DNA from: an uncultured Alphaproteobacteria bacterium
GTDB lineage: Bacteria > Pseudomonadota > Alphaproteobacteria > Rs-D84 > CACZYB01
Assembly (NCBI GenBank): GCA_934246625.1
Contig: CAKQHZ010000001.1
Span: 450,001-482,000 of the forward strand
Length of the DNA: 32,000 bases
Direction of reading: 5' to 3'
This document shows, piece by piece, positions 1-30,315 of this stretch. Both the position numbers and the translations under genes were made by a program. The notes beneath the pieces are model-generated. The model saw only the letters and a list, made by a program, of their open reading frames with translations. It did no database searches and had not been told where the DNA came from. Every line of letters starts with the position of its first letter. The first letter of the stretch is position 1.

Positions 1-638
1 ACAGTTGCAGTTGTGTCGGTTTTGTCTTGATATGCTTGATTTACTTCAAAATTTGATAATGGTGTTTCAGCAGCCCAAGAATATGGAAGAATACGGAAAT
101 CTTCGTAAAGAAGTCCCTTTTCATATAGGGTTTTAAATGCCCACATAATACTTTCTGAATATTCCTTGTCCATAGTTTTATATGCGTTTTCCATATCAAC
201 CCAACGGCCAAGGCGGTTTATGATACCTTTCCAATCATTTGCATAAGTTAAAACATCAATACGGCATTTGTCAGTAAATTTATCAACACCATATTCTTCT
301 ATGGCTTTTTTACCAGAAATACCAAGTTCCTTTTCCGTTTTAAGTTCAGGAGGTAGTCCATGACAATCCCAACCCCAACGGCGGTTGACCTTTTTGCCCT
401 TCATTGTTTGATAACGAGCAACGGTATCCTTTGTAAAACTTTGTAAAACATGACCATAGTGAGGAAGTCCATTTGCAAATGGAGGACCATCATAGAATAC
501 AAATTCGTTCTTTTCATCACGTTCGTCAACAGAGCGTTCGAAAATCTTTTCCTTATTCCAAAAGGCAAGAATCTTTTCCTCTATTTCAGGAAAATTGGGT
601 TTTGTTGTGGTTTCTGGATAAATATTTTTACTTGACAT
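1..638 (-). CDS. ileS: Isoleucyl-tRNA synthetase, N-terminal fragment (continues beyond the window edge); eukaryote-like type-2 signature
   Basis: Hand translation of the minus strand from the ATG (complement of 636-638) gives MSSKNIYPETTTKPNFPEIEEKILAFWNKEKIFERSVDERDEKNEFVFYDGPPFANGLPHYGHVLQSFTKDTVARYQTMKGKKVNRRWGWDCHGLPPE... It carries the class I HIGH motif (HYGH) and the WGWDCHGLP block. It is missing from the ORF track because no stop codon lies inside the window. Confidence 0.9.
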   Translation of the reverse strand, partial: MSSKNIYPETTTKPNFPEIEEKILAFWNKEKIFERSVDERDEKNEFVFYDGPPFANGLPHYGHVLQSFTKDTVARYQTMKGKKVNRRWGWDCHGLPPELKTEKELGISGKKAIEEYGVDKFTDKCRIDVLTYANDWKGIINRLGRWVDMENAYKTMDKEYSESIMWAFKTLYEKGLLYEDFRILPYSWAAETPLSNFEVNQAYQDKTDTTAT

Positions 639-700
639 AATTGTTTCCTTTGTTTAAAATGTGTCCGTTTTAATATTTATTATAATAGTAGGATTTAAAA

Positions 701-1477
701 ATGAATTCAATAGAAAAAGATAGTTATTTGCGAGAAAAGTTTGCAGGAAAGCCAGTTTCTGAAGTTGAATATTGTGATGAAGAAAAAAATAAACTTGTTA
801 TTTTTGATTTTGACGAAACTTTGGTTCAAAGTAAAGATATGTTTTTTAATGCGAATAAAAGAGCGATGGAAATTTTAAACCTTCCACATAATGACTATAT
901 CGTTTCAAATATATTTATTCTTGTAAATAGTGAATATTTAGGTTGGGGAAAGGATTTGAAGGAACAAGGTGAAATTTATGAAAATTTATATGCTCCTTTG
1001 GTGACAAAACTTTCTAATACCGAAGAATTTTTAAATCAAGTTAAGTTTTATAATGTTATGCATTCTGTTATCAAAGAATTGGCAAAATTGAATATTGCTT
1101 TGGCGGTTGCTTCTTCTCGTGATTTATATTCTATACTTTCCGTTTTAAAGCGTGAAGGTGTAAAAGGTTATTTTGATATTATTGAAGCAACTGAGGGTGG
1201 TAAAAATTTCCGTGATAAGCCTGATACTCATATTGTTCAATATATTTCTCAGGAAGTTGGAGTTCCTCTTGAAAAGGCTGTGATGGTTGGTGATTCAAAA
1301 TGTGATATTGAAATGGGAAAATCCGCTGGTATGAAAACAATAGGTGTTGGATTTGGTGCGTTTACAAGTTTGGAAAAAATGAAATCTTGTAGACCTAATG
1401 TTTTGCTTAGTCGTAAGGAAGAATTGAAAGATATTCCTGTTCATATAAAATATTTGTTAAATCAAAAATCAAAATAA
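701..1477 (+). CDS. HAD-superfamily hydrolase (phosphoglycolate phosphatase-like)
   Basis: 258-aa ORF. HAD motif I is DFDETL (IFDFDETLVQS), motif II is VASSR, and motif IV is GDSKCDIEMG. An AGGA sits about 9 nt upstream of the ATG. Confidence 0.8.
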   Translation: MNSIEKDSYLREKFAGKPVSEVEYCDEEKNKLVIFDFDETLVQSKDMFFNANKRAMEILNLPHNDYIVSNIFILVNSEYLGWGKDLKEQGEIYENLYAPLVTKLSNTEEFLNQVKFYNVMHSVIKELAKLNIALAVASSRDLYSILSVLKREGVKGYFDIIEATEGGKNFRDKPDTHIVQYISQEVGVPLEKAVMVGDSKCDIEMGKSAGMKTIGVGFGAFTSLEKMKSCRPNVLLSRKEELKDIPVHIKYLLNQKSK

Positions 1478-3411: not shown

Positions 3412-4449
3412 ATGAAACCATGTAATTGTTGCTGTTTCCCATTTGAAAGAATTATGTTAGAAGGTGATGGGGAGGTAAGTTTTTGTTGCCAAAGCAATAA
3501 TTACAAGTATGTTTTAGGAAATATTTTTTCAGATTCCTTTGAGGATTTATGGTATGGTGAAAAGGCTATAAATTTTAGAAAATCGATTCTTGACGGGTCG
3601 TATAGATATTGCAATTTAGATGTTTGTGGTGATTTTTGTCCTTGGAATTGTTTTGATGCGAATGGTAAAGATAAAGAAAAATTATTGTATCCACCATATC
3701 CAAAATATGTAAATATAAGTTATGTGTCTTCTTGTAATGTAAGATGTATGACTTGTCGAGATAAACTTTGTTTGGAACGACCTGAAGATACTGAGCAATT
3801 TGATAAAATTACAGATAAAGTTATTGATTTGTGTTGCAATGCTAAAACGGTTTATCTTGATGGTTCAGGTGAGCTTTTTACAAGTAATCATTTAAAGAAA
3901 ATGGTTCATAAGTTGGTTGATAAATATCCGAATTTAAAATTTCATATACATACTAATGGTTTGCTTTGTGATGAACAGCATATTAAAGAATTTGGTTTAG
4001 AAGGTAGGATTTTATCACTTAATATTTCTATACACTCAGCAACAAAGAAAACTTATGAAACTATAGTCAGAGGAGGGCATTGGGAACAACTTATTCAAAA
4101 TTTAGAGTATATAAAAAGTTTGAATATTAAAGAAGTTTATTTCATTTTTGTTTTACATTCTCTTAATTATAAAGAAATGCCAGCTTTTGCAAAAATGGCA
4201 AAAAAGTATAATGCAAAAGCAAAGTTTTGGAGATTTAGAAATTGGGAAACATCTCAGATGTGTAGAGAAATTGATAGATATTCATGTTGGGAAAGTTGGC
4301 ATCCTGATTATAAGAATTTTATAAAGATTTTAAGCAAACTTAAACGTGTAGGGAATTATATACTTGCAGAACCTTTTTTACGAAAACTTCAAGCTGGCGC
4401 AAAGGATTCCTTTGTTGATAAAATTGTTAATTTTTTTAATAAAAAATAG
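3412..4449 (+). CDS. Radical SAM protein with an N-terminal SPASM/twitch-like cysteine cluster
   Basis: 345 aa. CX3CX2C is present at SSCNVRCMTCRD, with the downstream blocks GSGELF, HTNG and ISIHS. The N-terminal 80 aa (CNCCCFPFERIMLEGDGEVSFCC...LGNIF...LWYG...FRKS...YCNLDVCGDFC) resemble a SPASM auxiliary-cluster domain. RBS is AAGGGGA. Confidence 0.8.
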   Translation: MKPCNCCCFPFERIMLEGDGEVSFCCQSNNYKYVLGNIFSDSFEDLWYGEKAINFRKSILDGSYRYCNLDVCGDFCPWNCFDANGKDKEKLLYPPYPKYVNISYVSSCNVRCMTCRDKLCLERPEDTEQFDKITDKVIDLCCNAKTVYLDGSGELFTSNHLKKMVHKLVDKYPNLKFHIHTNGLLCDEQHIKEFGLEGRILSLNISIHSATKKTYETIVRGGHWEQLIQNLEYIKSLNIKEVYFIFVLHSLNYKEMPAFAKMAKKYNAKAKFWRFRNWETSQMCREIDRYSCWESWHPDYKNFIKILSKLKRVGNYILAEPFLRKLQAGAKDSFVDKIVNFFNKK

Positions 4450-6309
4450 TTAGTTTGTTGTTATAATATAGCTCATTATTGCTTTGAAAATTTTGGCTGG
4501 AATTGTTCCGCCATAGCTTGAGTTTGTCATTGCGGTGTTGTTGTCGTTTCCTATCCATACACCTGTTATATATTTTGGTGAATATCCAATAAACCATGCG
4601 TCGCGGTTGTTTTGGCTTGTTCCTGTTTTACCACAAATATATTCGCCCTTTATATTTGCATTGGAACCTGTGCCACCTTCGATTACTCGCCTTAACATAT
4701 AATTCATATTTTCGACTTGGGCTTCGGATAAAAGTTTTCCTACACCACTTCCTTTGCGTTCATAAATGATATTGCCATCGGCGTCAGTTATTGTTGTAAT
4801 TGCATGAGGAATTACGCCATAACCCTTATTTGCAAATGTCGCAAATGCAGATGTTAGGTCAAGTAGTGTTGTTTCAGAGGTGCCAAGGATTATTGAATAA
4901 TCGTTGTTTATTTTATCAATAAGTCCAAGTTTTCGTGCGGTAGCAATTATATTTTTTAAACCAACTTCCTTTGCAATAGCAACAGGGACTGTGTTAACTG
5001 ATTTTTCAAGTGCATCAGCCATTGAAATTTCGCCTATGTATTTATCATCATGATTTCTTGGGGTCCAATTTTCAATCGTTGTTGGTGTGTCGTTAAATAT
5101 ATCGTTTGGTTTGAAACCCTTTTCAAGTGCGGTTAGATAAACAAATGGTTTGAATATTGAACCTGGTTGGCGTTTCATTTGATTAGTGCGATTAAATTGA
5201 CTTTCGGTGTAATTTTTACCTCCTACCATTGCAAGAATATCTCCGTTTATATCAATTACAATACTTGCGATTTGAGAAAAGTTATACTTCTTTCCGTCTT
5301 TTTCAATATAGGTTTTAGTTATGTTTTCAGCAGTTTTTTGTATAGAGTTATCAAGGGTTGTATAGATTATAATATCCTTTGAAATATCACTTATTAAAGA
5401 GTGCATTTCATTTAAAACATAATCTGTAAAATATCTTATTTGATTATAGTTGTTTGTAGGATTTTCGTATTTATAATTTAATGCTTCCTTGTATTGTTGT
5501 TCGTTTATATAGCCTTGGTCATACATAAGAGCAAGCACAGTTTTTGCACGTTTTAAAGATGCTTCTGGATTATTTATTGGATTTAGTCTTGTTGGGGCTT
5601 TTAACATTCCAGCAAGAATTGCAGATTCAGCAATATTTATATCGTAAATTGATTTGTTGAATAATATTTCGGCGGCATTGGCGATGCCATATTTTCCTCC
5701 GACAAGAGAAATTCGGTTTAAGTATAAAGAGAGGATTTGATTTTTTGTAAATTTGTTTTCAAGCCAAAGAGTTATCATAACTTCCTGTATCTTACGGCTT
5801 ATGGAACGCTTACTTGAAAGGAAAACATTTTTTGCAAGTTGTTGGGTGATGGTGCTTCCACCTTGGGCGGAGCGATTTCTTATGATGTTATTGACTAAGG
5901 CACGGAAAAGACCTCTTATATCCACACCAAAGTGAGAATAAAAACGGCGGTCTTCCACAGCAAGAACGGCTTGCCATATATGTGGTGGTAATGTTTCAAC
6001 ATCAACAGTTTCCCCGTATATATCATTTATTGCAAAAATTTTTTCATCATTTCGGTCTGCAATTATTATGCTTGGTTTCCTTGTTTGATTGGTTATGTGT
6101 TCTATGTTTGGAAGTGTTAGTGCAAGGTATAGTAATATAATTGATAAAAAAATTCCTGCCCATATTCCAAAGTATATGAAGTAATAAAAAAATTTACCCC
6201 AAAGACCATTTTGGTATTTGTATCCCTTTATTCTTCCGTGATATGCGGGACCACAGTGATATGATTTGGCACCACTTGAAAGGCTATATCTAAATTTGTT
6301 TATCTTCAT
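4450..6309 (-). CDS. mrcA: Class A penicillin-binding protein (bifunctional transglycosylase/transpeptidase)
   Basis: 619 aa with an N-terminal TM anchor. GT51 motifs EDRRFYSHFGVD and GGSTITQQL are present. Transpeptidase motifs are SIFK (SxxK), SVN (SxN) and KTGTS (KTG). Confidence 0.93.
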   Translation of the reverse strand: MKINKFRYSLSSGAKSYHCGPAYHGRIKGYKYQNGLWGKFFYYFIYFGIWAGIFLSIILLYLALTLPNIEHITNQTRKPSIIIADRNDEKIFAINDIYGETVDVETLPPHIWQAVLAVEDRRFYSHFGVDIRGLFRALVNNIIRNRSAQGGSTITQQLAKNVFLSSKRSISRKIQEVMITLWLENKFTKNQILSLYLNRISLVGGKYGIANAAEILFNKSIYDINIAESAILAGMLKAPTRLNPINNPEASLKRAKTVLALMYDQGYINEQQYKEALNYKYENPTNNYNQIRYFTDYVLNEMHSLISDISKDIIIYTTLDNSIQKTAENITKTYIEKDGKKYNFSQIASIVIDINGDILAMVGGKNYTESQFNRTNQMKRQPGSIFKPFVYLTALEKGFKPNDIFNDTPTTIENWTPRNHDDKYIGEISMADALEKSVNTVPVAIAKEVGLKNIIATARKLGLIDKINNDYSIILGTSETTLLDLTSAFATFANKGYGVIPHAITTITDADGNIIYERKGSGVGKLLSEAQVENMNYMLRRVIEGGTGSNANIKGEYICGKTGTSQNNRDAWFIGYSPKYITGVWIGNDNNTAMTNSSYGGTIPAKIFKAIMSYIITTN

Positions 6310-7177: not shown

Positions 7178-7299
7178 TTCTTTCTCCTTTTCTTCTATTA
7201 TAACAAAAAATCTGGGATTTAAAAGTTTTTTATACTTGAAAAGGTGATTTTCAGTTGTTATCTATATATTATATAATAACTTTATAAAGGAATTTGGAA

Positions 7300-7977
7300 A
7301 TGACAGATAAAAAATGGAAAAATAAGCATTATGAAAATACAGATGTTAAAAAAGAATCTGAGTGTGGTTGTAAGTGTGGTGAAAAATGTAATTGTGAAAA
7401 GGATAAATGTGCATCTGGAAATTGTGAATGTGGAAAGGATTGTAAGTGCCATCATGAACATCATTGCAATGATTGTGGTGAAGGTGTTGAATGTCCAGAT
7501 AATGGTTGTGAAAAGGAATTTGATAAAATTGAAAATTTAAAGGCTGAAGTTGCTTCTTGGCAAGAAAAGTATATAAGGACTTTGGCTGATTGTGAAAATG
7601 CAAAACGTCGTGCCGATATTGATGCAAAAAATATGATTGATTATAAAATCGCAAAATTTGCAAAGGATATGTTGCCTTTGGCTGATAATATTGCTTTGGC
7701 TTTGGCTTCTATTGAAGGAAAAGTTGATAGTAGTGTTATTGAAGGTTTGAAATCTATACAATCTGGTTTTATTAGCGCATTAGAAAAAAATAATATTTGC
7801 AAAATTAAAACTGTGGGTGAAAAACTTAATCCTCAGGAACATTGTGTTGTTATGCAAGTTGATGACCCAAATGTAGAAGAAGGTGTTGTTGCACGTGAGC
7901 TTCAAGCTGGTTATAAGTTGGGTGATAAGGTTATTAGAGAAGCAATGGTCGCAACTTCAAATGGAAAAAAGAACTAA
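7300..7977 (+). CDS. grpE: Nucleotide exchange factor GrpE with a roughly 70-aa Cys/His-rich (metallothionein-like) N-terminal extension
   Basis: The GrpE core is recognisable (LKAEVASWQEKYIRTLADCENAKRRADID...FAKDMLPLADNIALAL...GYKLGDKVIREAMV). I chose the ATG at 7300, which is 9 nt after AAAGG; the track start at 7294 is a TTG. The N-terminus reads ECGCKCGEKCNCEKDKCASGNCECGKDCKCHHEHHCNDCGEGVECPDNGC. Confidence 0.9.
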   Translation: MTDKKWKNKHYENTDVKKESECGCKCGEKCNCEKDKCASGNCECGKDCKCHHEHHCNDCGEGVECPDNGCEKEFDKIENLKAEVASWQEKYIRTLADCENAKRRADIDAKNMIDYKIAKFAKDMLPLADNIALALASIEGKVDSSVIEGLKSIQSGFISALEKNNICKIKTVGEKLNPQEHCVVMQVDDPNVEEGVVARELQAGYKLGDKVIREAMVATSNGKKN

Positions 7978-8332
7978 TTATTCTTTGGGTATAGAGGCAG
8001 AAGATAGAGCAAAATCGATTCTTCAAGATAAAGGTTTTGAGATATTGACTTCTCGGTATCAGGTGGGATATGGGCTTGATGCAGGAGAAGTTGATATAAT
8101 TGCAGTTGATAAGTCAAAAAAATTATTATTGTTTGTTGAAGTGAAAAAGCGAAAAACTTTGGAGCTTGCAGGAAATTCAATATTTCAATCACAAATGGAT
8201 AGAATTTATAATTCAGCAGAGGTTTTTTTATCAAAAGAACCGGCTTTTTGTGATTTTGATTGTCGATTTGATGCAGTGTTATTTGATGATAAATTTAATT
8301 ATGAATATTTAGAAAATGCATGGGGATTTTAA
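7961..8332 (+). CDS. yraN: YraN-family (UPF0102) endonuclease-like protein
   Basis: MEKRTNYSLGIEAEDRAKSILQDKGFEILTSRYQ...GEVDIIAVDKSKKLLLFVEVKKRK matches the YraN pattern (GxxAE...G...R...GE.D.I......vFVEVK.R). The internal ATG at 7961 is preferred over the track start at 7883, which lies inside grpE. Confidence 0.8.
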   Translation: MEKRTNYSLGIEAEDRAKSILQDKGFEILTSRYQVGYGLDAGEVDIIAVDKSKKLLLFVEVKKRKTLELAGNSIFQSQMDRIYNSAEVFLSKEPAFCDFDCRFDAVLFDDKFNYEYLENAWGF

Positions 8333-8338
8333 AACTTC

Positions 8339-8367
8339 TTGATTTTTAATTTAGTTTAATGTATAAA
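8339..8367 (+). promoter_or_regulatory. Putative sigma70-type promoter for tRNA-Leu
   Basis: TTGATT (8339-8344), 17-nt spacer, TATAAA (8362-8367), with TG one nt upstream of the -10. It ends 12 nt before the tRNA 5' end. Confidence 0.45.
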
Positions 8368-8379
8368 TATTCTTACTTT

Positions 8380-8464
8380 GGGAATGTGGCGGAATTGGTA
8401 GACGCGGCGGACTCAAAATCCGCTGGGGCGACCCTTGAGAGTTCGATTCTCTCCATTCCTACCA
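8380..8464 (+). tRNA. tRNA-Leu, anticodon CAA, with encoded CCA
   Basis: Hand-folded cloverleaf. Acceptor is GGGAATG/CATTCCT (first pair G-U). D arm is GCGGAATTGGTAGACGC. Anticodon stem is GCGGA/TCCGC with loop CTCAAAA (CAA at 8414-8416). There is a long variable arm, a T arm GAGAG-TTCGATT-CTCTC, discriminator A and CCA. Confidence 0.93.
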
Positions 8465-8588
8465 AACTTTTAAAGTAAAGGCGATTGCCAAACAAGGATA
8501 CAAACTTACAATTCTAAAACTCCTCACTATCGCTGTTCGTCGTTAAGAATTATTCGTGTTTGTGTTCTCTGATTCCTGCTAAATTTAG

Positions 8589-8617
8589 AATCAGCATTTT
8601 TCGGTGCTGATTTTTTT
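8589..8617 (+). terminator. Intrinsic terminator about 125 nt downstream of tRNA-Leu
   Basis: Stem AATCAGCA/TGCTGATT, loop TTTTTCGG, followed by a T run (8611-8617). Confidence 0.6.
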
Positions 8618-8710
8618 ATGAAAATTTTCTTGTTTATTTTGAAATAATATTATAAAATGGAATTAGTTTTTATAGAAATGTGAAAACTTGGGATTAATGA
8701 GGAGAAAACT

Positions 8711-9019
8711 ATGATGAAAAAATTTCTATTATTTTTTTCTATTTTATTTTGTGTATTTTTCAAAGTGAATTCTTCCGTTTATGCAACTGTAAGCAGCAAT
8801 TCTCTTGAAAAAATTCTATTTCAATATTGTGTTCCAAAAGAAGGAAATTGTGATGTAAAAGCCACATATAAAAACGGTAAATGTATTTGTCCTGGTGATA
8901 AATTATATATGGACAGAGAATGTTTTAAACCTGTTTGTCCTTCTGGAACTTATATCTATTATAGTAACGACACAGATTCTTGTGGTGCGGGAAATTACAG
9001 AACAAAAGTCAGAAATTAA
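8711..9019 (+). CDS. Small secreted cysteine-rich protein, type 1 (QYCVP..GNCD.KATY family)
   Basis: 102 aa. GAGGAG RBS sits 6 nt upstream. Signal peptide MMKKFLLFFSILFCVFFKVNSSVYA. The mature part has 7 Cys. It is a paralogue of 28694-29110. Confidence 0.8.
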   Translation: MMKKFLLFFSILFCVFFKVNSSVYATVSSNSLEKILFQYCVPKEGNCDVKATYKNGKCICPGDKLYMDRECFKPVCPSGTYIYYSNDTDSCGAGNYRTKVRN

Positions 9020-9113
9020 GTTTATGGGAGAACTACTTTCATAATTTTTGTCTGTTCTCTCTCCATTTAAAAATTTGTCTTTTATATAATAATCAAACAA
9101 AAAGGAGAAGACT

Positions 9114-10190
9114 ATGAACAATAAAAAATATATAATATCGGTAATAGGTGTGTTATCTTTTGTTGGAATTGCACACGCTGCTATTTTTCAATGCAGAACT
9201 TGTGAAGAGGGGACTTATGGTGATGGAACATCTGTAAGTTGCACAAAATGTCCGACTGGGGCAGTTTGTCCTGAGGGAACTGGAGCACCAATTTATTTAT
9301 CAAATTATAAAGATAAGTTATTATCTGTATGTGGTGAGATAGGTAAGGAAATTGCAATAGATACAGGTTTTTCTTCCAGTAATTTTGTTTCAGAAATGAT
9401 TGATAAACAAAAAGTAAAAATAAATTATAGTGGAGATATAATTAAAAAGGGAGAAAGTGGTTATAATTATGCAAGGGCATATTATGAAGTTAGTTGTTAT
9501 GATCTTGATGGTTATTATGCAAGTAGTGGATATAAAGCTATTACAGATTTTATTCAAAGCAAAATATGTAATGATGAATCAGAAGTAAAAAGTCATTTAG
9601 AACCTATGAGTTCATCATCAACTTTAACACCTGGAATATATAGGATTGATGTAGCTGGTGCCGGTGGTGGCGGTGCAGGTGGAAATGCTTGTGGATGGTG
9701 TTATGGAGCTGGTGGAGGTTATGGAGGTAATGGTGATTTGCAGACTAGATATATATATTTAGTTGATAATCAGCCTTATAATTATGTTGTTGGTGCTGGT
9801 GGTGGTAATGGTTGTGGTTCTGGTTGTAATCATCGTGGAGTAAATGGTAAGAAAGGTGGAACATCATCCTTTACTTTGTTAGGAAATGTTTTTGAGGCAT
9901 TAGGTGGAGATGGTGGAGAATCTGCACATAGTGGTTGTGATGTGTCTAATGGTAAAAATGGTGCTGCTGCTGGTAATGGTTTAGGTGGTGTTGGTGGTGA
10001 GAATAGATATGGTAACAAATGTGCTTATGATGGAAATACTGGTTGGGTAAAGATTTATCAAATTGGTATGAGAAAAACCGGTTGTCCTTCTTTAAGACCA
10101 TCTACTTCTTCTGGTGGATGTTCTTCAGGTGGTTATTTTGGCGGTTGCTCTACAGGTGGTTATTTTGGTGGTTGCTCAGGAGGATACTGA
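9114..10190 (+). CDS. Secreted protein: N-terminal cysteine-rich module (type 2) plus a glycine-rich domain and a C-terminal GGYFGGCS repeat
   Basis: 358 aa. AAGGAG RBS and signal peptide ...VGIAHA. The Cys module is FQCRTCEEGTYGDGTSVSCTKCPTGAVCPEG. The glycine-rich core is IYRIDVAGAGGGGAGG...YGAGGGYGGNG...YNYVVGAGGGNG...GKKGGTSSF...ALGGDGGES. Confidence 0.85.
   Translation: MNNKKYIISVIGVLSFVGIAHAAIFQCRTCEEGTYGDGTSVSCTKCPTGAVCPEGTGAPIYLSNYKDKLLSVCGEIGKEIAIDTGFSSSNFVSEMIDKQKVKINYSGDIIKKGESGYNYARAYYEVSCYDLDGYYASSGYKAITDFIQSKICNDESEVKSHLEPMSSSSTLTPGIYRIDVAGAGGGGAGGNACGWCYGAGGGYGGNGDLQTRYIYLVDNQPYNYVVGAGGGNGCGSGCNHRGVNGKKGGTSSFTLLGNVFEALGGDGGESAHSGCDVSNGKNGAAAGNGLGGVGGENRYGNKCAYDGNTGWVKIYQIGMRKTGCPSLRPSTSSGGCSSGGYFGGCSTGGYFGGCSGGY
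10113..10187 (+). repeat. 27-nt tandem repeat (2.8 copies) encoding GGCS(S/T)GGYF
   Basis: Units at 10113-10139, 10140-10166 and 10167-10187 (partial). They have the form ggYggWtgYtcWWca ggtggttatttt. Confidence 0.8.
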
Positions 10191-10207: not shown

Positions 10208-10234
10208 TTCCCCTCTTTGTAGGGGAATTTTTTT
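10208..10234 (+). terminator. Intrinsic terminator of the 8711-10190 cassette
   Basis: Stem TTCCCCT/AGGGGAA, loop CTTTGT, then TTTTTTT. Confidence 0.75.
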
Positions 10235-16689: not shown

Positions 16690-16900
16690 ACGGAGCTTTG
16701 AACGGCTTTTTTACTTACAAGGGTATGAATTTTGTGTGATACCGTTTGGTATCTTTTTTTATACCCAAAGCCCCAACCTTTGTTGGTTGGGGAGCTGTGG
16801 TTATACAACAGGAATATAGTCTTTGCTATAGTCTAAAAGCCTCAGAGTCATTGTAAGTATGATTGTTCAACTGCCCGACCACTATCTTTGATATGTGGGT
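16690..16900 (+). promoter_or_regulatory. Candidate structured 5' leader RNA, copy A (homologous to 28455-28657)
   Basis: Outer stem GGGTAT (16721-16726)/ATACCC (16761-16766) encloses hairpin GATACC-gttt-GGTATC (16738-16753). Next comes hairpin CCCCAACC-tttgtt-GGTTGGGG (16771-16792). The conserved block TATGATT...CCCG.CCA... (16858-16899) ends in hairpin CCAC-TATC-ttt-GATA-t-GTGG, followed by a U-rich tract. Confidence 0.5.
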
Positions 16901-16924
16901 TTATTTTATTAAAGGGAGAAAAAT

Positions 16925-17491
16925 ATGAAAATCATGAACAAAAAATTACTTTTATTATATATGTCTTTATATCCTTGTATAACAAATGCAAATGTATATA
17001 TGTGTTTGCGATGTCCTGTTGGAACTTATGGTGATGGAAAATCATCATATTGTTCACCTTGTCCAAAAATAGATGGAGCACATTATTTGGAAGATTCAAA
17101 GAATTGTGAATGGGAGTGTGATGAAGGTAAAGTTGTTGTTGCAAAATATGCGAATGGTGGAGGTTGTTGCACTGAACCAGCTAAACCAAAATGTCCTTCT
17201 GTTAAAGTTTATGTTTTCGGTAACTGTTCAGGTTCGGGTTCTCATGGAGGATCTTGTCAACTTCAATATTCAAAAACTTTGGAATGTGGAGAAAGTTTTC
17301 AAAATGATGGGAGTGCGACAAATACACCAAATGGACAATATGATTGTATAACGATGGCTTGTAGAAGCGGAGGTTTTGTTAAAAATATTAATGGAGAAAT
17401 GTGGTGTTATAAAGACTCCTATGATATGAAAAAAAATAAAAATGGACGTCATTATGATAGGTCAGGTGATGCTAAATGTCTAAAAGAGTAA
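16925..17491 (+). CDS. Secreted cysteine-rich protein, type 2 (solitary copy)
   Basis: 188 aa. GGGAGA RBS and a hydrophobic N-terminus. The module YMCLRCPVGTYGDGKSSYCSPCPK aligns with the N-termini of 9114-10190 and 29218-29871. The C-terminal YDRSGDAKCL matches YDRSGFFNCL in 29218-29871. Confidence 0.8.
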   Translation: MKIMNKKLLLLYMSLYPCITNANVYMCLRCPVGTYGDGKSSYCSPCPKIDGAHYLEDSKNCEWECDEGKVVVAKYANGGGCCTEPAKPKCPSVKVYVFGNCSGSGSHGGSCQLQYSKTLECGESFQNDGSATNTPNGQYDCITMACRSGGFVKNINGEMWCYKDSYDMKKNKNGRHYDRSGDAKCLKE

Positions 17492-18702: not shown

Positions 18703-18731
18703 TTGATTTTTATCTATTTTTATGTTATTAT
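18703..18731 (+). promoter_or_regulatory. Putative promoter of the 18755-21415 gene pair
   Basis: TTGATT (18703-18708), 17-nt spacer, TATTAT (18726-18731), with an extended -10 TG. It overlaps the track's upstream ATG at 18722, which is therefore rejected. Confidence 0.45.
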
Positions 18732-18754
18732 TGAAAATAAAGGAAAGAATGGGA

Positions 18755-20077
18755 ATGAAAAAAATTTTATGTTTTTTGATGGTTTTTACTTTTGCCGTTG
18801 AGGGCTTTTCTGCTCCACGAAAGAAGGCTGGCTCTTCTAAACGTGTAGCAACAGCAGGTAAGATAAGGACTGCTTCTTCAACCACAATAACGGCCACAAA
18901 TTCAACAGAGGAAGATTCTTTTGAATCTTGTATGGATAATATTTGTAAATCAGAACTTTATGAAGATAAGGGTAGATGTAGATGTTCATCTCAACTTGGA
19001 AGAATTGAAAAGGTTCTTCGTGATATTGAAAAAATCCAAAACCAAGCAGATGAAGATAATAAGTTGATGGAAACTTTGATGAATGTTTCAAATACTGCAA
19101 ATGTAGATGATACTGTTGGAAGTGTTTATGATAATATTAACAGTATTGAAAAAAAGGCAAAAACTATTTCTGCAAGGGCTGTGGATAAAGATTTACTTGT
19201 GATGGAAGGATTGCCTTTGTATGAAGTAGGATTAAAGAAATGTAAGGGCTTTTTGGATACACTTTCATCAAAAGATAAGGATAAAAAGAAAGAAGAATAT
19301 ACAAAACTTATTGAAGGAGATTGTTCTGCTTATACAACTATTTTAAAAGAAAAGGCAGATAGTGCACAAAATCTTTTGGTGCAAGCACAAAAAAATCGCG
19401 AAAAGTTTGATGAACAGGAATATAAAAAGCGTAATCAACTTGATACTAATGCTTGTTATGTAGAATATGAAGCATGTGCAAAAACCGAATGTGGCACAAA
19501 CTTTAAGTATTGTAAGGATAGTGCAAAACAAGCGACCGTCCTTAAAAAGTGTCAAGCTGTGAATTATGGTAAATGTGAAGATAATAAAACAACGGTTATT
19601 GCCGATGTAAAAAAGTATATTGCAAAGGAGCTTGAAAAGGTAAGATTAGTTGATAATTGTAAGGCTGCAATGGGTCATCTTCAAAATGGAAAATGTTTGT
19701 TTAAGGTTATGTATATTGCAGATAAATGTTCAAGTGGTAGTGGTTGTGGATCTTCTCAAGTTGTATGGGCGACACCACGTCAAAAATTCAAATGTGATGA
19801 TACACGCGGTAGTTTTAAAGAGCTTATTGCTGGATGTTATGAAAGTTGTTATATTATTGGACCAAATGATGAAAAGATTTATAAGGGAACAAACCATAGT
19901 GATAATATGGGTGGTCAAATTGTTGGTGCAATATTTTCTTTGGGTATAAGTGTTGCACATACACTTCCTGGATGTGTAGAAAAAAAGAATATTGATACTT
20001 TCTATACTCCTGCGGCTCCTGATGGTTGGGGCGAAGATGGTTATCCAACGAATCCAGAATATAAGGGAATTTTATAA
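18755..20077 (+). CDS. Large secreted cysteine-rich protein of unknown function (paralogue A)
   Basis: Start is at MKKILCF (18755; 18749 is also possible) after AGGAAAG. Signal peptide ...AVEGFSA is followed by the basic tract PRKKAGSSKRVATAGK. The protein has many Cys and a coiled-coil-like central region. Confidence 0.8.
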   Translation: MKKILCFLMVFTFAVEGFSAPRKKAGSSKRVATAGKIRTASSTTITATNSTEEDSFESCMDNICKSELYEDKGRCRCSSQLGRIEKVLRDIEKIQNQADEDNKLMETLMNVSNTANVDDTVGSVYDNINSIEKKAKTISARAVDKDLLVMEGLPLYEVGLKKCKGFLDTLSSKDKDKKKEEYTKLIEGDCSAYTTILKEKADSAQNLLVQAQKNREKFDEQEYKKRNQLDTNACYVEYEACAKTECGTNFKYCKDSAKQATVLKKCQAVNYGKCEDNKTTVIADVKKYIAKELEKVRLVDNCKAAMGHLQNGKCLFKVMYIADKCSSGSGCGSSQVVWATPRQKFKCDDTRGSFKELIAGCYESCYIIGPNDEKIYKGTNHSDNMGGQIVGAIFSLGISVAHTLPGCVEKKNIDTFYTPAAPDGWGEDGYPTNPEYKGIL

Positions 20078-21415
20078 ATGAAAAAATTTTTAGTATTTGT
20101 TGTTTCTTTTGTGGTTGTATTAGGTAGTTTTTTTGATGTGGCTTTTTCTCAAAGAGCAAGGAGAAGACAAGCATCATCAAGAAAAACAAAACGTGCTGGG
20201 AATATTAAAAGGGCGGCAACTTCTGGTGGAAGTGGGGCAAAATCTTCTGGAAATACAAAAAAGGCAACTGGTTCAAAATCAAAAAGTAAAAGTTCCTCTT
20301 CTTCAAAAAGTGGGTCTTCCTCCTCCTCTTCATCATCATCATCTTCTTCTGATGAAGGGTTGTCAGCTGAACTTAAATGTCTTCAACAAAATCTTTCTTC
20401 TCTTTTAGGAGATAAATGTAAGTTTGTTGTGGATTCTGATATAACTTCTGCTTTGGAAGGAGAAGATTTATATTGTGTTTATAATTATAAGGATAGTGGT
20501 AAAACCTCAAGTGTTTATAATTATTATTTGAATGCTTATTATGGTGTTTCAGAAACATCTGTAAAGTCAGATACTTCCATCGTTAATGTGAAAAATAGTT
20601 CTAAAAATGCACTTAAGTATTATCAATATTTGATTGATGAAATTGCAAATGGAACATTAAAGGAAAGTAAAATTCTTGATAGTGTTACTGAAAAGGTTTT
20701 GGAAAATTCAAATGTTGCAAATGATGTGCAAGGTGTTATTGAAAAAAAAAGTGTTGAAACTGTGCCATTATCAATGAGTATTGTTTCTTCGGATTTGGAA
20801 AATTGCACAAAGGCGACGAAGGCAATTTTAAAAGAGTGTGGTGCGATTGGTAATCAAACAGTTAAAAAGAAAATTTCTGAAAGTTGCACCGCTTATAATG
20901 CAGTATTGTTAAAACTTGCTGGTAATAAAAAGACAGAAGCTCTTGGTTTCGAGGGTGAAATTATAAATGCATTGAAGGAACGTGCAAATGCAGACTTTTA
21001 TGATTATAAAGAGCTTGTTGAACAACAGGCTGAAAAGTTGAAACTTGATGAACAATATGCAGAAACACAAAAGAAAACAAAGCTTTTGACACTTAAGAAT
21101 AAGCGTGATGATACTGCAAGTAAATTGGTTGAATTGCGAAATAGGATAAAAGGACTTAATTCGGATGATTCTGCAAAGGAAACATTTGAAAGTCAGGCAA
21201 ATACTTATGCAAGCTCACTTTGTCTTTTGGATCAACAAATTTCAAGTTTGGATAGCACTTATAAACCATCTGATAATTTAGCAAAGTGTTCAGATGATGA
21301 TAAAAAAAATGATAGTGATAAAAAAGATGTAGATAAAAATAAAACATCAGAAAGCGGAAATACTTCTTCTGGTTCAAATGATACCGCTGGTAAAGCTAAT
21401 ATGGATGCAAAATAA
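20078..21415 (+). CDS. Large secreted Ser/Lys-rich coiled-coil protein of unknown function (paralogue B)
   Basis: 445 aa. The ATG directly abuts the upstream TAA. Signal peptide ...DVAFS is followed by the basic tract QRARRRQASSRKTKRAGNIKRAATSG. It shares blocks with the upstream gene (CSAYTTIL vs CTAYNAVL). Confidence 0.8.
   Translation: MKKFLVFVVSFVVVLGSFFDVAFSQRARRRQASSRKTKRAGNIKRAATSGGSGAKSSGNTKKATGSKSKSKSSSSSKSGSSSSSSSSSSSSDEGLSAELKCLQQNLSSLLGDKCKFVVDSDITSALEGEDLYCVYNYKDSGKTSSVYNYYLNAYYGVSETSVKSDTSIVNVKNSSKNALKYYQYLIDEIANGTLKESKILDSVTEKVLENSNVANDVQGVIEKKSVETVPLSMSIVSSDLENCTKATKAILKECGAIGNQTVKKKISESCTAYNAVLLKLAGNKKTEALGFEGEIINALKERANADFYDYKELVEQQAEKLKLDEQYAETQKKTKLLTLKNKRDDTASKLVELRNRIKGLNSDDSAKETFESQANTYASSLCLLDQQISSLDSTYKPSDNLAKCSDDDKKNDSDKKDVDKNKTSESGNTSSGSNDTAGKANMDAK
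20315..20350 (+). repeat. Run of 12 consecutive Ser codons (TCN)
   Basis: tct tcc tcc tcc tct tca tca tca tca tct tct tct, in frame within 20078-21415. Confidence 0.9.
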
Positions 21416-28454: not shown

Positions 28455-28657
28455 TTAGCGTCCATAGGTGGACGTGGGACTGTCGTAAGTTCTTTATATA
28501 CTGCCGTATGTTATTTTACATACGATCTTTGTCCCCACCTTTAGTGGGGAGTCTTTGGTGTATGTCCAGAGGATATTTTTATATTCTTAAAGACCAAGGA
28601 AATCATCTTGCAGTATATATGATTTACGAACTCCCCGCCATTTATGTGATAAATGGG
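28455..28657 (+). promoter_or_regulatory. Candidate structured 5' leader RNA, copy B (homologous to 16690-16900)
   Basis: Hairpin CGTCCA-tagg-TGGACG (28459-28474). Outer stem GGGAC (28476-28480)/GTCCC (28531-28535) encloses CGTATGT-tatttt-ACATACG (28505-28524). Then hairpin CCCCAC-cttta-GTGGGG (28533-28549). The conserved block at 28618-28657 ends in the perfect hairpin CCATTTAT-gtg-ATAAATGG. Confidence 0.5.
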
Positions 28658-28693
28658 AAAAATTTTGTGATACACAAAAAAGGGGAAGAAACC

Positions 28694-29110
28694 ATGAAAA
28701 ACTTATCTAAAGTACTTTGTATTTGTGCGGGGGCTATCTCGGCAAATCCTATTAACCTTCAGGCTAAAACTTTGCTTGAAACCTTGACTCAATACTGTGT
28801 TCCGACGGTTGGCAACTGCGACAAAAAGGCTACCTACAATACCTCTGGCAACTATTGCGATTGTGCCAACATCAACAAATTCTATAACTCTTCGAATCGT
28901 TCTTGCGAGAACTGTATCCTCGGCTCTTTCGCAACCTCAGACTATAAAACTTGTGAGCCTATTCATTGCCCTGACGGCTATGTTGCGACTTTGATTTCCA
29001 AAGGGGCGTGTCCAGATGGCTATACTTTGCAACAAATCAATGTGGCTTCGGGTTGTGGCGAGGGTTATGCGTTGAAGAAGTATAATCCGGCGACGAAGAG
29101 TTTTAATTAA
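28694..29110 (+). CDS. Small secreted cysteine-rich protein, type 1 (QYCVP..GNCD.KATY family), higher-GC copy
   Basis: ATG at 28694 after AGGGGAAG. Signal peptide MKNLSKVLCICAGAISANPINLQA. LTQYCVPTVGNCDKKATYNTSGNYCDC aligns with LFQYCVPKEGNCDVKATYKNGKCIC of 8711-9019. Confidence 0.8.
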   Translation: MKNLSKVLCICAGAISANPINLQAKTLLETLTQYCVPTVGNCDKKATYNTSGNYCDCANINKFYNSSNRSCENCILGSFATSDYKTCEPIHCPDGYVATLISKGACPDGYTLQQINVASGCGEGYALKKYNPATKSFN

Positions 29111-29217
29111 AGATATGGGCGGGAGTTTTTTATCATAGTCTTGCTTCCGCCCTCCCAGATTGGCACTTTTGAAGAGGGGGAGGTGTCAAGGAAGAAACAC
29201 CCTCGAAGGAGAAAAAA

Positions 29218-29871
29218 ATGAAAACCATGAAGAAAAAGAAATTAGCGGTGATAGGGATAGCGGGAATGCTCTCTGCAACACCTGCCTCCGCTCAAACATT
29301 TTATCAATGTATGCCTGTAAAGTGTAAAGCAGGAGAGTATGTAAGTGGAAGTAGTTGTGAGCGTTGCACTGGAGGTTATCGTTGTCCAGGAGATAATAAA
29401 AGGTATGCGTGCACAGGCGAATGGGAATATGCAACACCAGGAAGTTCATACTGCTCTACCTTTGGCCCAAGTGATGTTCGTATTTGGGTTGGTGGTGGCT
29501 GTGCTGATAGAGATAGAAACGATCAAGCTCTAATGTCTAAGTTAGTGCCAATTACATCTTTTTCTACAAAGAAGGAAAATGGTCAAACAAAATATATTAC
29601 AAACTTTAGTATTCTATCAGACAGAAACAAATATGATAGATCAGGTTTCTTTAATTGTTTAGATAATAATTTTAAAAAAAAATATACTTCACAAGAACAA
29701 TGGTGTAAATATGCAAGTATTACTCTTTTAACAACTCCAAATGCTGGTGGTTCATCAGACTTTACCGTAAAACAATATAGTAAAGTATATGGAACGTTAG
29801 AGTTTCGATCTAGTTTTGAGTGTTTAAGATTAGGTCCAGGCGGTGGTTGTGCAAATAAATGTAATAATTAA
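29218..29871 (+). CDS. Secreted cysteine-rich protein, type 2; compositionally chimeric
   Basis: 217 aa. GGAG RBS and signal peptide ...SATPASA. The module YQCMPVKCKAGEYVSGSSCERCTGGYRCPGD aligns with the other type-2 N-termini. G+C drops sharply near 29520. Confidence 0.8.
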   Translation: MKTMKKKKLAVIGIAGMLSATPASAQTFYQCMPVKCKAGEYVSGSSCERCTGGYRCPGDNKRYACTGEWEYATPGSSYCSTFGPSDVRIWVGGGCADRDRNDQALMSKLVPITSFSTKKENGQTKYITNFSILSDRNKYDRSGFFNCLDNNFKKKYTSQEQWCKYASITLLTTPNAGGSSDFTVKQYSKVYGTLEFRSSFECLRLGPGGGCANKCNN

Positions 29872-29877
29872 AAAAAA

Positions 29878-29899
29878 GCCCTCAAATGAGGGCCTTTTT
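29878..29899. terminator. Bidirectional terminator between convergent genes
   Basis: Stem GCCCTC-aaat-GAGGGC, flanked by A8 upstream and CTTTTT downstream. Confidence 0.65.
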
Positions 29900-29910: not shown

Positions 29911-30315
29911 TTATTCCCAACCTGATGTATCGCTTAGACCACCGTATGTTTGTTGGATATTGTTTTTACCTTCTGGGTCAGCCATATATGATACGATAAA
30001 GCCAGCAACTCCAAGAAGAACAAGTGCAACGATTAACATAAATAATTTTTTCCAGTCAATGTCTCCTTTTTCGATAGCATTCCATGCATATCCTAAAAAT
30101 GCAACAGCAGCAACAACGAATAATGCATTTCTTGTATATGCGAATAGTTGGCTTCCACGTTGTAAGAATCTTTCAAAAGGACCAGTTTTTCCGGTTGTTA
30201 CAATCTCACTTCCAGTTTGTGCAAGAACATCAACAGGAACCATAAACATAAATGCAACTAAAATACCAAGACATACAAGTGTAGATTTTTTAGTTAAAAA
30301 TTTGAATATTGACAT
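29911..30315 (-). CDS. Small membrane protein with VirB2/TrbC-pilin-like architecture (assignment tentative)
   Basis: 134 aa. AGGAG RBS. A long signal-like N-terminus ends VDVLA|QTGSE. A hydrophilic stretch is followed by two hydrophobic helices separated by a short charged loop (FVVAAVAFLGYAWNAIEKGDIDWKKLFMLIVALVLLGVAGFIVSYM). Confidence 0.7.
   Translation of the reverse strand: MSIFKFLTKKSTLVCLGILVAFMFMVPVDVLAQTGSEIVTTGKTGPFERFLQRGSQLFAYTRNALFVVAAVAFLGYAWNAIEKGDIDWKKLFMLIVALVLLGVAGFIVSYMADPEGKNNIQQTYGGLSDTSGWE

Follow-up and report, generated by a model that had tools for sequence, protein, structure and literature searches.

Polyglycine domains are known both as host-binding elements of phages and as the ligand-binding region of ALK (PMC13243795 and PMC13243192). 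In the former source, polyglycine-rich "brush" domains are presented as the presumed antireceptors of siphophage tails; the latter groups Bxb1 gp33/gp29, S16 gp38 and the ALK/LTK domain as glycine-rich polyproline II (PPII) bundles. The Ephrin_rec_like cysteine repeat, for its part, is considered an invention of eukaryotes and a rarity in bacteria (PMC6993872). Here we analyze a 32,000-nt stretch of DNA (the window; guanine-plus-cytosine, GC, content ~32%) from what we treat as a low-GC, uncultured, gut-associated alphaproteobacterium, which carries two two-gene cassettes and one solitary gene coding for exported Cys-rich proteins, none of them annotated beyond "hypothetical". Type-1a and type-2a designate the products of copy 1, type-1b and type-2b those of copy 2 and type-2c that of the solitary gene at 16925; L numbers denote related metagenomic loci or strains, and P numbers related proteins. 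We propose, with a probability of roughly one half, that these genes encode polymorphic exported binding proteins, forming a lineage-specific, fast-diversifying family of low-GC gut Alphaproteobacteria in which each cassette would be a small operon.

Copy 1 is composed of the type-1a gene (8711..9019, + strand), coding for a small exported Cys-rich protein of 102 amino acids (aa) with a signal peptide over approximately residues 1-25, and of the type-2a gene (9114..10190, +; 358 aa). Type-1a presents a conserved box (LxQYCVPxEGNCxxKATY), seven conserved Cys and a CPSGTY...C element in its C-terminal half; it has orthologues at 53-89% identity in L004, L005, L008 (two copies) and L011 and among P0020-23, and no match in Pfam, NCBIfam, PHROG or PADLOC. 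The type-2a signal peptide (residues 1-22, 9114-9179, +) is followed by a single ephrin-receptor/TNFR-like Cys unit, AIFQCRTCEEGTYGDGTSVSCTKCPTGAVCPEG (residues 23-57, 9180-9284, +), a family-specific middle region without a recognised fold (residues 58-165, 9285-9608, +), a predicted Gly_rich_2 polyglycine domain (residues 166-320, 9609-10073, +) and a Gly/Cys/Tyr tail, GGCSSGGYFGGCS... (residues 321-358, 10074-10187, +). Copy 2 comprises the type-1b gene (28694..29110, +; 138 aa), which contains the conserved box (TQYCVPTVGNCDKKATY) and an inserted Cys unit, and the type-2b gene (29218..29871, +; 217 aa), in which a constant signal peptide and Cys stalk (~residues 1-87) precede a variable C-terminal head. 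The solitary type-2c gene (16925..17491, +; 188 aa) has no type-1 gene upstream, encodes a signal peptide, then NVYMCLRCPVGTYGDGKSSYCSPCP and then a Cys-rich region without a recognised fold, and is missing from the omp-downstream position in L008.

A previous inspection of the same DNA (the sequence-only reading) had described five open reading frames (ORFs) with Sec signal peptides, a repeated gene order, a set of shared motifs and a type-1 to type-2 spacing of 95-110 nt; the ORFs, the motifs and the repeated gene order are present, and the intergenic gaps measure 94 nt in copy 1 and 107 nt in copy 2. The start that it gave to type-1b, at 28694, is an ATG inside a longer TTG-initiated ORF, and the orthologues begin at that same ATG. 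Judged by eye and by hydropathy, each of the five proteins displays a K-rich n-region, a hydrophobic core and an AxA-like cleavage site (AHA↓A, ASA↓Q, TNA↓N, VYA↓T and LQA↓K), and an AGGAG-like ribosome-binding site precedes each of the five ORFs. The 94-nt spacer of copy 1 (9020..9113, +) forms an imperfect hairpin, is 96% identical in L004 and has no terminator-like site in a terminator scan, so that type-1a and type-2a are probably co-transcribed. Cassette 1 ends in a terminator-like hairpin and T-run (10208..10227, +), beyond which infB lies in convergent orientation, and a bidirectional terminator-like hairpin (29878..29893) separates type-2b from the convergent virB2 gene. Within the cassettes such hairpins occur 3' of type-2 genes only, which fits two-gene operons. 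The mature type-2 N-terminus begins with [ILVF]-[YF]-[QM]-C-x2-C-x2-G-x-Y throughout the family. Type-2a and type-2c contain one Cys unit each and type-2b a variant (C-x4-C), and a translation of the window in all six frames contains the strict pattern C-x2-C-x2-G-x-[YF] just three times, each time within a cassette-family gene.

The resemblance between the copies is confined to short modules. Type-1a and type-1b are 40% identical over 45 residues by BLASTP (E 8e-9), and a profile of type-1 orthologues aligns with type-1b over 33 columns in hhalign (E 1.8e-7). Type-2a matches type-2c over 45 residues (BLASTP, E 2e-7) and type-2b over 56 (E 1e-4), the type-2a and type-2b profiles aligning over 31 columns (hhalign, E 7.5e-5, probability 62%). 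Composition-preserving shuffles (2000 for whole mature proteins, 5000 for the first 35 mature residues) place the type-1 box and the N-terminal modules far above the level given by Cys-rich composition: mature type-1a and type-1b score 84 against 31±6 for the shuffles (0/2000), and the first 35 mature residues score 78 against 22±5 for type-2a and type-2c (0/5000), 53 against 25±5.5 for type-2a and type-2b (1/5000) and 39 against 23±5 for type-2b and type-2c (43/5000). At full length the same control is marginal, mature type-2a and type-2b being barely above their shuffles (95/2000); the other 150-300 residues of each type-2 protein have no relation to those of the others, and hhalign finds no homology between type-1 and type-2 (probability 18%). 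The earlier view of a paralogous family of exported Cys-rich type-1/type-2 pairs is thus supported, and that of a duplicated cassette is not: similarity extends over only 33-45 residues in type-1 and ~31-56 in type-2, and the C-terminal domains are unrelated. What repeats is gene order and N-terminal modules, not whole genes. Since the codon composition of copy 2 is foreign, as detailed below, we regard the two window cassettes as probable distant, modular paralogues and not as a recent duplication.

The strongest contrast between these genes and their surroundings emerges from the near-identical strains L004 and L012 of the window organism, used here for comparisons of nonsynonymous (dN) and synonymous (dS) divergence. 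The flanking proteins are 98-100% identical in these strains (dS 0.02-0.05, dN/dS 0.05-0.08), with BamA, Skp and LpxD at 99-100%, and the cassette proteins are 76-95% identical: 87% for type-1a (dN 0.075, dS 0.245, dN/dS 0.31), 76% for type-2a (dN 0.18, dS 0.44), 95% for type-1b (dN 0.038, dS 0.069) and 85% for type-2b (dN 0.096, dS 0.163). The glycine-rich domain of type-2a, taken separately, falls to 59% (dN 0.38, dS 1.02). Such sharp differences between near-identical strains make the cassette products look like fast-evolving surface-recognition proteins. Moreover, their synonymous divergence is 10- to 40-fold above that of the flanks, which suggests old alleles moved by recombination and not just rapid amino-acid change. 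The glycine-rich domain occurs in three alleles with ~60% mutual identity, carried by N-terminal parts that are 88-96% identical. A clean swap of this domain from L011 into P0002 was also considered and is only partly borne out, as the domain of P0002 is 62% identical to that of L011 and the window allele 41%, and in their N-terminal parts both alleles are about equally close to L011; the pattern would therefore correspond to shared allele classes and not to a proven transfer. Mutagenesis by a diversity-generating retroelement was rejected, since no reverse transcriptase is encoded among the window ORFs and the divergence involves indels and saturating dS over ~155 codons.

The variable domain of type-2a is also its largest recognisable domain. 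Above the gathering cut-off of PF21722 (Gly_rich_2; 24.3 bits) we find P0003, an allele of type-2a (24.8 bits), and P0006 (29.8), P0007 (32.4) and P0025 (34.0). An AlphaFold2 model of type-2a reaches a predicted local distance difference test (pLDDT) of ~80 over residues 160-317 and presents the beta-sandwich with glycine-rich strands known from solved phage tail proteins. In Foldseek its best match is the tail tip of mycobacteriophage Bxb1 (9d93_Q, E 4.5e-6), followed by the ALK/LTK glycine-rich domains 7lir, 7nx0, 7nx1 and 7lrz (E 4e-4 to 1e-2, probability 0.9-1.0), and 190 viral matches in BFVD (E<=1e-3) are mostly glycine-rich-domain-containing or minor tail proteins of actinophages, together with giant-virus proteins. 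The C-terminal half of type-2a is accordingly predicted to be a Gly_rich_2 domain with a fold like that of the phage tail "brush" and of ALK/LTK. By sequence the family is sparse: type-2a homologues form only seven clusters in a collection of 5.8 billion proteins, and at E<=1e-3 a hidden Markov model (HMM) search of 1.84 billion representatives returns 286 proteins, almost every one of them by virtue of its glycine-rich domain; a few have only the signal peptide and Cys module in common with type-2a. NCBIfam and PADLOC contain nothing for these proteins, PHROGs yield one weak match (minor tail, for the orthologue P0006), tblastn of type-2a against GenBank phages and searches of IMG/VR with the type-1 and type-2b alignments recover no relatives, and we found no paper mentioning PF21722.

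With the phage brush domains (PF21722; Bxb1 9D93; actinophage minor tail proteins and, in principle, S16 gp38), type-2a thus shares, over its C-terminal ~155 residues, a predicted fold and, at or just under the Pfam cut-off, a sequence family, and its glycine-rich domain is its most variable part, as expected for a receptor-binding surface. It differs from them in being encoded chromosomally among housekeeping genes, with a Sec signal, a Cys stalk and an exported partner, and without a virion context. With the glycine-rich (TNF-like/GlyR) domain of ALK/LTK it shares a resemblance of fold, the combination of a glycine-rich domain with Cys-rich modules and, presumably, an extracellular location; on the other hand, type-2a has no match to the ALK/LTK profile PF12810 at E<=1, searches of PDB sequences give nothing significant and no ALK or LTK chain, the TM-score is ~0.2, the phage matches are better and type-2a has neither kinase nor membrane anchor.

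The N-terminal Cys unit can be placed through its orthologues. P0005 and P0006, 35-41% identical to type-2a, have several tandem units where the window protein has one, and the type-2a unit aligns with the first of them. Stalk length among the relatives ranges from one to about six rungs, and orthologues with 3-6 tandem units are well above the gathering cut-off of PF07699 (Ephrin_rec_like, GCC2_GCC3; 23.1 bits). The scores are 51.5 bits for P0005, 72.6 for P0006, 26.1 for P0007, 49.4 for P0033 and 41.5 for P0061; among the type-2b relatives, P0196 is above the cut-off (26.3) and P0185 exactly at it (23.1). P0005 also passes PF23091, TNFR_ELAPOR1_6th (34.3 against a cut-off of 33.2). The resemblance to ephrin-receptor-like and TNFR-type repeats that the sequence-only reading had noted therefore stands at the level of the family, through orthologues that pass the Pfam cut-offs; the window proteins keep one short unit each and remain below them. 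The spacing C-x2-C-x2-G-x-Y-x4-6-C-x2-C is common to the family and to the known repeats (PF07699, PF23091, PF00020 and NCD3G), but the type-2 repeat always stands directly after the signal-peptide cleavage site and has a conserved [ILVF][YF][QM]C start, which is not described for the eukaryotic repeats.

The adjacency of type-1 and type-2 genes, which the sequence-only reading had noted within the window, is conserved in related genomes, where the pairs occupy at least four genomic contexts in at least five related lineages of gut metagenome-assembled genomes. The type-1 family is very narrow. Pairs of the copy-1 type are found between tRNA-Leu and infB: a type-1 gene and then a type-2a orthologue precede infB in the window species, L004, L005, L008 and L011, of which L005, L008 and L011 represent more divergent lineages, with infB and nusA 87-91% identical to those of the window. 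In L008 the same stretch holds two type-1 and two type-2 genes, with a 97-aa ORF between the first type-1 gene and its type-2 gene. Between the two type-1 genes of L008 lie that extra gene (7873-8166), which codes for an exported helical Cys protein of 97 aa, and a gene for a 281-aa type-2 protein (8141-8986) that is almost entirely made of Cys repeats and has no glycine-rich domain. Elsewhere, a pair lies between fabZ and virB2 in the window and in L012, and between fabZ and a TraT region in L017. L018 has a pair following a glycosyltransferase gene, L019 one flanked by dsbA and rpsD, with Gly_rich_2 in its type-2 protein, and L016 one adjoining an Mtd_N phage-tail-like gene. The latter, at 136-1266 (-) of a 3.4-kb metagenomic contig, codes for a 376-aa protein with an Mtd_N/phage tail N-terminal domain and is divergent from the type-1b/type-2b cassette.

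Copy 2 is modular as well. Many of the 50 relatives of type-2b are 77-86% identical to it over the first ~56 residues and unrelated beyond, with at least four types of head, and one relative carries Gly_rich_2. Breakpoints of DNA identity lie inside the type-2b gene, at window position 29348 with respect to L016 and 29478 with respect to L014. P0030 links both type-2 lineages, with an N-terminus like that of type-2b (48% over 69 residues, E 2e-15) and a body like that of type-2a. Type-1b is 95-99% identical in L012, L016 and L017, and its 99% identity in L017 despite a different partner head speaks for a function of type-1 together with the constant part. The GC content at third codon positions (GC3) is 0.47 in type-1b and 0.31 in the 5' part of type-2b, against 0.12-0.26 (~0.19) in the rest of the window and a native 0.145 in the 3' part of type-2b, so that the constant module looks imported. 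The DNA of window positions 28694-29478 recurs in other contexts (L014 and L016) at 90-92% identity, and looks like a constant module that spreads horizontally.

A further shared element lies upstream of the coding regions. The long untranslated regions of type-2c and type-1b have blocks in common, which correspond to a putative structured 5' leader RNA of ~170 nt, located at 16760..16931 (+) before type-2c, where it extends into the start codon, and at 28521..28700 (+) before type-1b. The two score 166 and 158 bits, respectively, with covariance model R1. Other instances were located in L012 (6282-6462), L016 (1762-1935), L017 (5303-5483 and 11846-11996(-)), L019 (5084-5257), L005 (5148-5314), L008 (9149-9315) and L011 (5840-6007). 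In four sequences, RNAalifold proposes 38 pairs, of which 12 show compensatory changes. Genes outside the training set of R1 are preceded by the leader too: the model detects it at 61 bits before a type-2-like gene of 143 aa in L017/L018, and with E about 1e-7 before the type-1a orthologues of L005, L008 and L011. In an alignment of nine instances, which had itself been fitted to R1, 93.8% of the cells are standard pairs, as opposed to 44-54% with partners slid, and 21 of the 38 pairs change on both sides, values that none of 500 shuffles reaches. In helix 1 the 5' CCUUU pairs with the Shine-Dalgarno AAAGG, and a GGGGAG segment can pair locally or else with a distal CUCCCC. Rfam contains no family at gathering score or E<=5 over 16760-16931 or 28521-28700, and we consider the leader a candidate translational control element and a candidate new cis-regulatory motif. 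The RNA leader, the Gly_rich_2 domain, the strain-level hypervariability and the architecture of constant leader and variable head had all been missed by the sequence-only reading.

Taken as polymorphic exported binding proteins, the members of a cassette might operate as follows. Both would leave the cytoplasm through Sec and undergo oxidation in the periplasm, a scheme that the dsbA gene adjoining the L019 cassette fits. Type-2 proteins would be extracellular or surface-exposed binding proteins, of adhesin or receptor-binding type, in which a disulfide stalk of ephrin-receptor/TNFR-like type, with the N-terminal Cys unit as its first rung, would carry an exchangeable head. The copy-1 head would be a glycine-rich domain similar to those found at phage tail tips and fibres and to those with which ALK/LTK bind ligand; it might contact an external target that varies, for example the surface of a host or partner cell, and diversify through the exchange of old alleles. 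Type-1 would be co-transcribed and co-exported and, because it stays nearly constant while the head of its partner is swapped, would most likely serve the constant stalk, as anchor, adaptor or folding partner, instead of matching the head. For copy 2 and type-2c, translation may be gated by pairing of the 5' leader with the ribosome-binding site.

Several observations weigh against this proposal. In a diderm, a Sec signal alone delivers a protein only to the periplasm. The C-terminal half of type-2a itself scores 22.5 bits (E 1.3e-4) with PF21722, just below the cut-off; its model, with a mean pLDDT of 54.7 overall, is poor outside residues 160-317, and the TM-scores of the Foldseek matches are low (0.2-0.5). 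None of the window proteins (type-2a, 2b and 2c and both type-1) matches PF07699 at E<=1, and of such Cys repeats sub-threshold NCD3G is all that they display. No fold could be recognised for the heads of type-2b and type-2c; the type-2b model, built on an alignment of 16 sequences, has a pLDDT of 36.7 and does not resolve the head. The dN/dS ratios are below 1 (0.3-0.6), in agreement with old alleles and recombination rather than with proven positive selection, and the evidence for the role of type-1 is co-variation only. Finally, R1 detects nothing before the window gene at 8711, and hence copy 1 has no leader.

Five competing explanations were weighed. That the resemblance between cassettes is a chance effect of Cys-rich composition and signal peptides finds some comfort in the shortness of the similarity, in the full-length comparison of type-2a and type-2b and in the 62% hhalign probability; it is nonetheless already largely refuted, and extremely improbable, because the observed scores exceed 4999-5000 of 5000 shuffles for the N-terminal modules (a-c and a-b) and 2000 of 2000 for the type-1 box, which the orthologue profile also recovers, and because bridging proteins exist and the pairing recurs at many loci. 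Each of the four remaining rivals fails at least one expectation among those checked. In a polymorphic toxin or bacteriocin-like system, the N-terminus would serve trafficking, the C-terminus would be the toxin and type-1 would act as immunity or export partner. The likeness to such toxins, and to variable surface protein families, is real: in both, a near-identical 5' region, signal peptide and stalk are found on unrelated C-terminal domains, there are several paralogous copies per genome and strains diverge strongly. Here, however, no toxin domain is detected in Pfam, NCBIfam or PADLOC, the one recognised head is a binding domain and not an enzyme, and the variable end is followed by a terminator and a convergent housekeeping gene instead of an immunity gene. 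The exported partner gene is upstream, and its product does not co-vary with the head (99% identity with a different one); no recognisable toxin/immunity pair, silent-cassette archive or invertible element is in view, and this explanation seems unlikely.

An origin in, or a direction against, phages (domesticated receptor-binding proteins, tailocin-like parts or surface decoys that intercept phages) would account for phage tail proteins being the best matches of the glycine-rich domain, for the weak minor-tail match of P0006 and for the Mtd_N/tail gene adjoining one copy-2 cassette, but we consider it improbable given the Sec signal peptides, lacking in phage virion proteins, the housekeeping neighbours in the window and the negative searches of GenBank phages (type-2a), IMG/VR (type-1 and type-2b) and PADLOC. 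We are more skeptical still of effectors that mimic, and derive from, a eukaryotic host, with ephrin-receptor-like and ALK-like modules and a ligand-like type-1 acting on host receptors. The eukaryotic reputation of Ephrin_rec_like (PMC6993872), the resemblance to the ligand-binding domain of ALK/LTK, the gut association of the organism (including a Hadza human sample) and the nearby genes for a type IV secretion system (T4SS) pilin and TraT all point in that direction; yet the glycine-rich domain is closer to phage and bacterial Gly_rich_2 than to ALK and does not match PF12810, copy 1 has a native codon usage, eukaryotic homologues were not recovered and type-1 is unrelated to any known ligand family, making this a very unlikely account. 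Equally hard to sustain, and in our estimation highly improbable, is the notion of envelope-resident (periplasmic or outer-membrane-associated) Cys-rich proteins with a structural, redox or metal-binding function and no external target. It is favoured by the many Cys, by a Sec signal without an obvious signal for outer-membrane translocation and by the other exported Cys-rich proteins of the window (18722-21415), but a strain divergence of 15-40% would not be expected of housekeeping proteins when BamA, Skp and LpxD are 99-100% identical, and neither would exchangeable heads.

Relative to described systems, the polymorphic exported binding proteins proposed here do not constitute a new kind of system, because their domains are known Pfam families and families with a constant N-terminus and a variable C-terminus are a known theme. 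The new elements are an ephrin-receptor/TNFR-like stalk placed directly after the signal peptide and combined with a phage/ALK-type glycine-rich head, a dedicated family of small exported partners, a mobile constant module and a covarying leader RNA. A bolder reading, which we hold only tentatively and deem rather unlikely, would join these elements into a previously undescribed two-component surface-recognition system: a Cys stalk with interchangeable heads, including ALK/phage-type polyglycine, a small partner docking on the constant stalk, a new RNA leader responsive to a ligand or signal and a mobile constant module spreading between sites and lineages. In its stronger version, the ephrin-receptor-like and ALK-like ectodomains may engage host receptors.

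The remainder of the window is dominated by housekeeping genes of a diderm (mnmG, a class A penicillin-binding protein gene, folD, grpE, infB-nusA-rimP, clpP, rseP-bamA-skp-lpxD-fabZ and tsaB), besides genes for a rubrerythrin and an orphan VirB2 pilin. The exact ClpP and FabZ of the window species were found on 86 and 134 metagenomic contigs, respectively, the contigs with exact copies of window proteins reaching 648-715 kb, and a related cassette occurs in a Hadza human-gut assembly (L019, dsbA/rpsD context). The orphan TrbC/VirB2 pilin gene (29911-30315, -; Pfam TrbC, E 3.4e-7) is convergent with type-2b, and no other T4SS gene was identified among the window ORFs; at the virB2 position, L017 has a different gene set that includes TraT. 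Two adjacent genes at 18722-20077 and 20078-21415 code for products of 451 and 445 aa, both with signal peptides, the first containing 20 Cys and the second a long low-complexity Ser/Lys-rich stretch, and neither has a match in Pfam, NCBIfam or PHROG. GrpE (7294-7977, +) carries an unusual N-terminal extension of ~70 residues, rich in Cys/His/Glu/Lys (CGCKCGEKCNCEKDKCASGNCECGKDCKCHHEHHC...), that resembles a metal-binding tail. A radical SAM/SPASM gene (3412-4449, +) between mnmG and the penicillin-binding protein gene is missing there in the near-identical strain L004 and appears to be a strain-variable insertion. Directly 3' of tRNA-Leu(CAA), the noncoding segment 8469-8636 is 88-94% identical in L004, L005 and L011, more conserved than the adjoining type-1 gene, and terminates in a hairpin and T-run; its 3' part repeats the 3' end of the tRNA, and a ~125-nt insert is missing in L008. 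This segment has no Rfam match at E<=1; it may be a small RNA, or an integration event at the tRNA may have left it behind as an att-like remnant.

For the organism, which is seen in many gut metagenomes and has no cultured representative, the cassettes are the most variable genes in the regions compared, and hence the leading candidates for its points of contact with the environment. Near-identical core genes with distinct cassette alleles mean that the cassettes could also serve as typing markers. The predicted masking of the ribosome-binding site by helix 1 lends concrete form to the hypothesis of an RNA switch. At the level of the family, the combination is an unusual one, in which a glycine-rich binding domain, known otherwise from phage tails and from ALK/LTK, is joined to a Cys repeat that counts as eukaryotic, and type-2a would provide a cellular, exported example in which to study what polyglycine domains bind.

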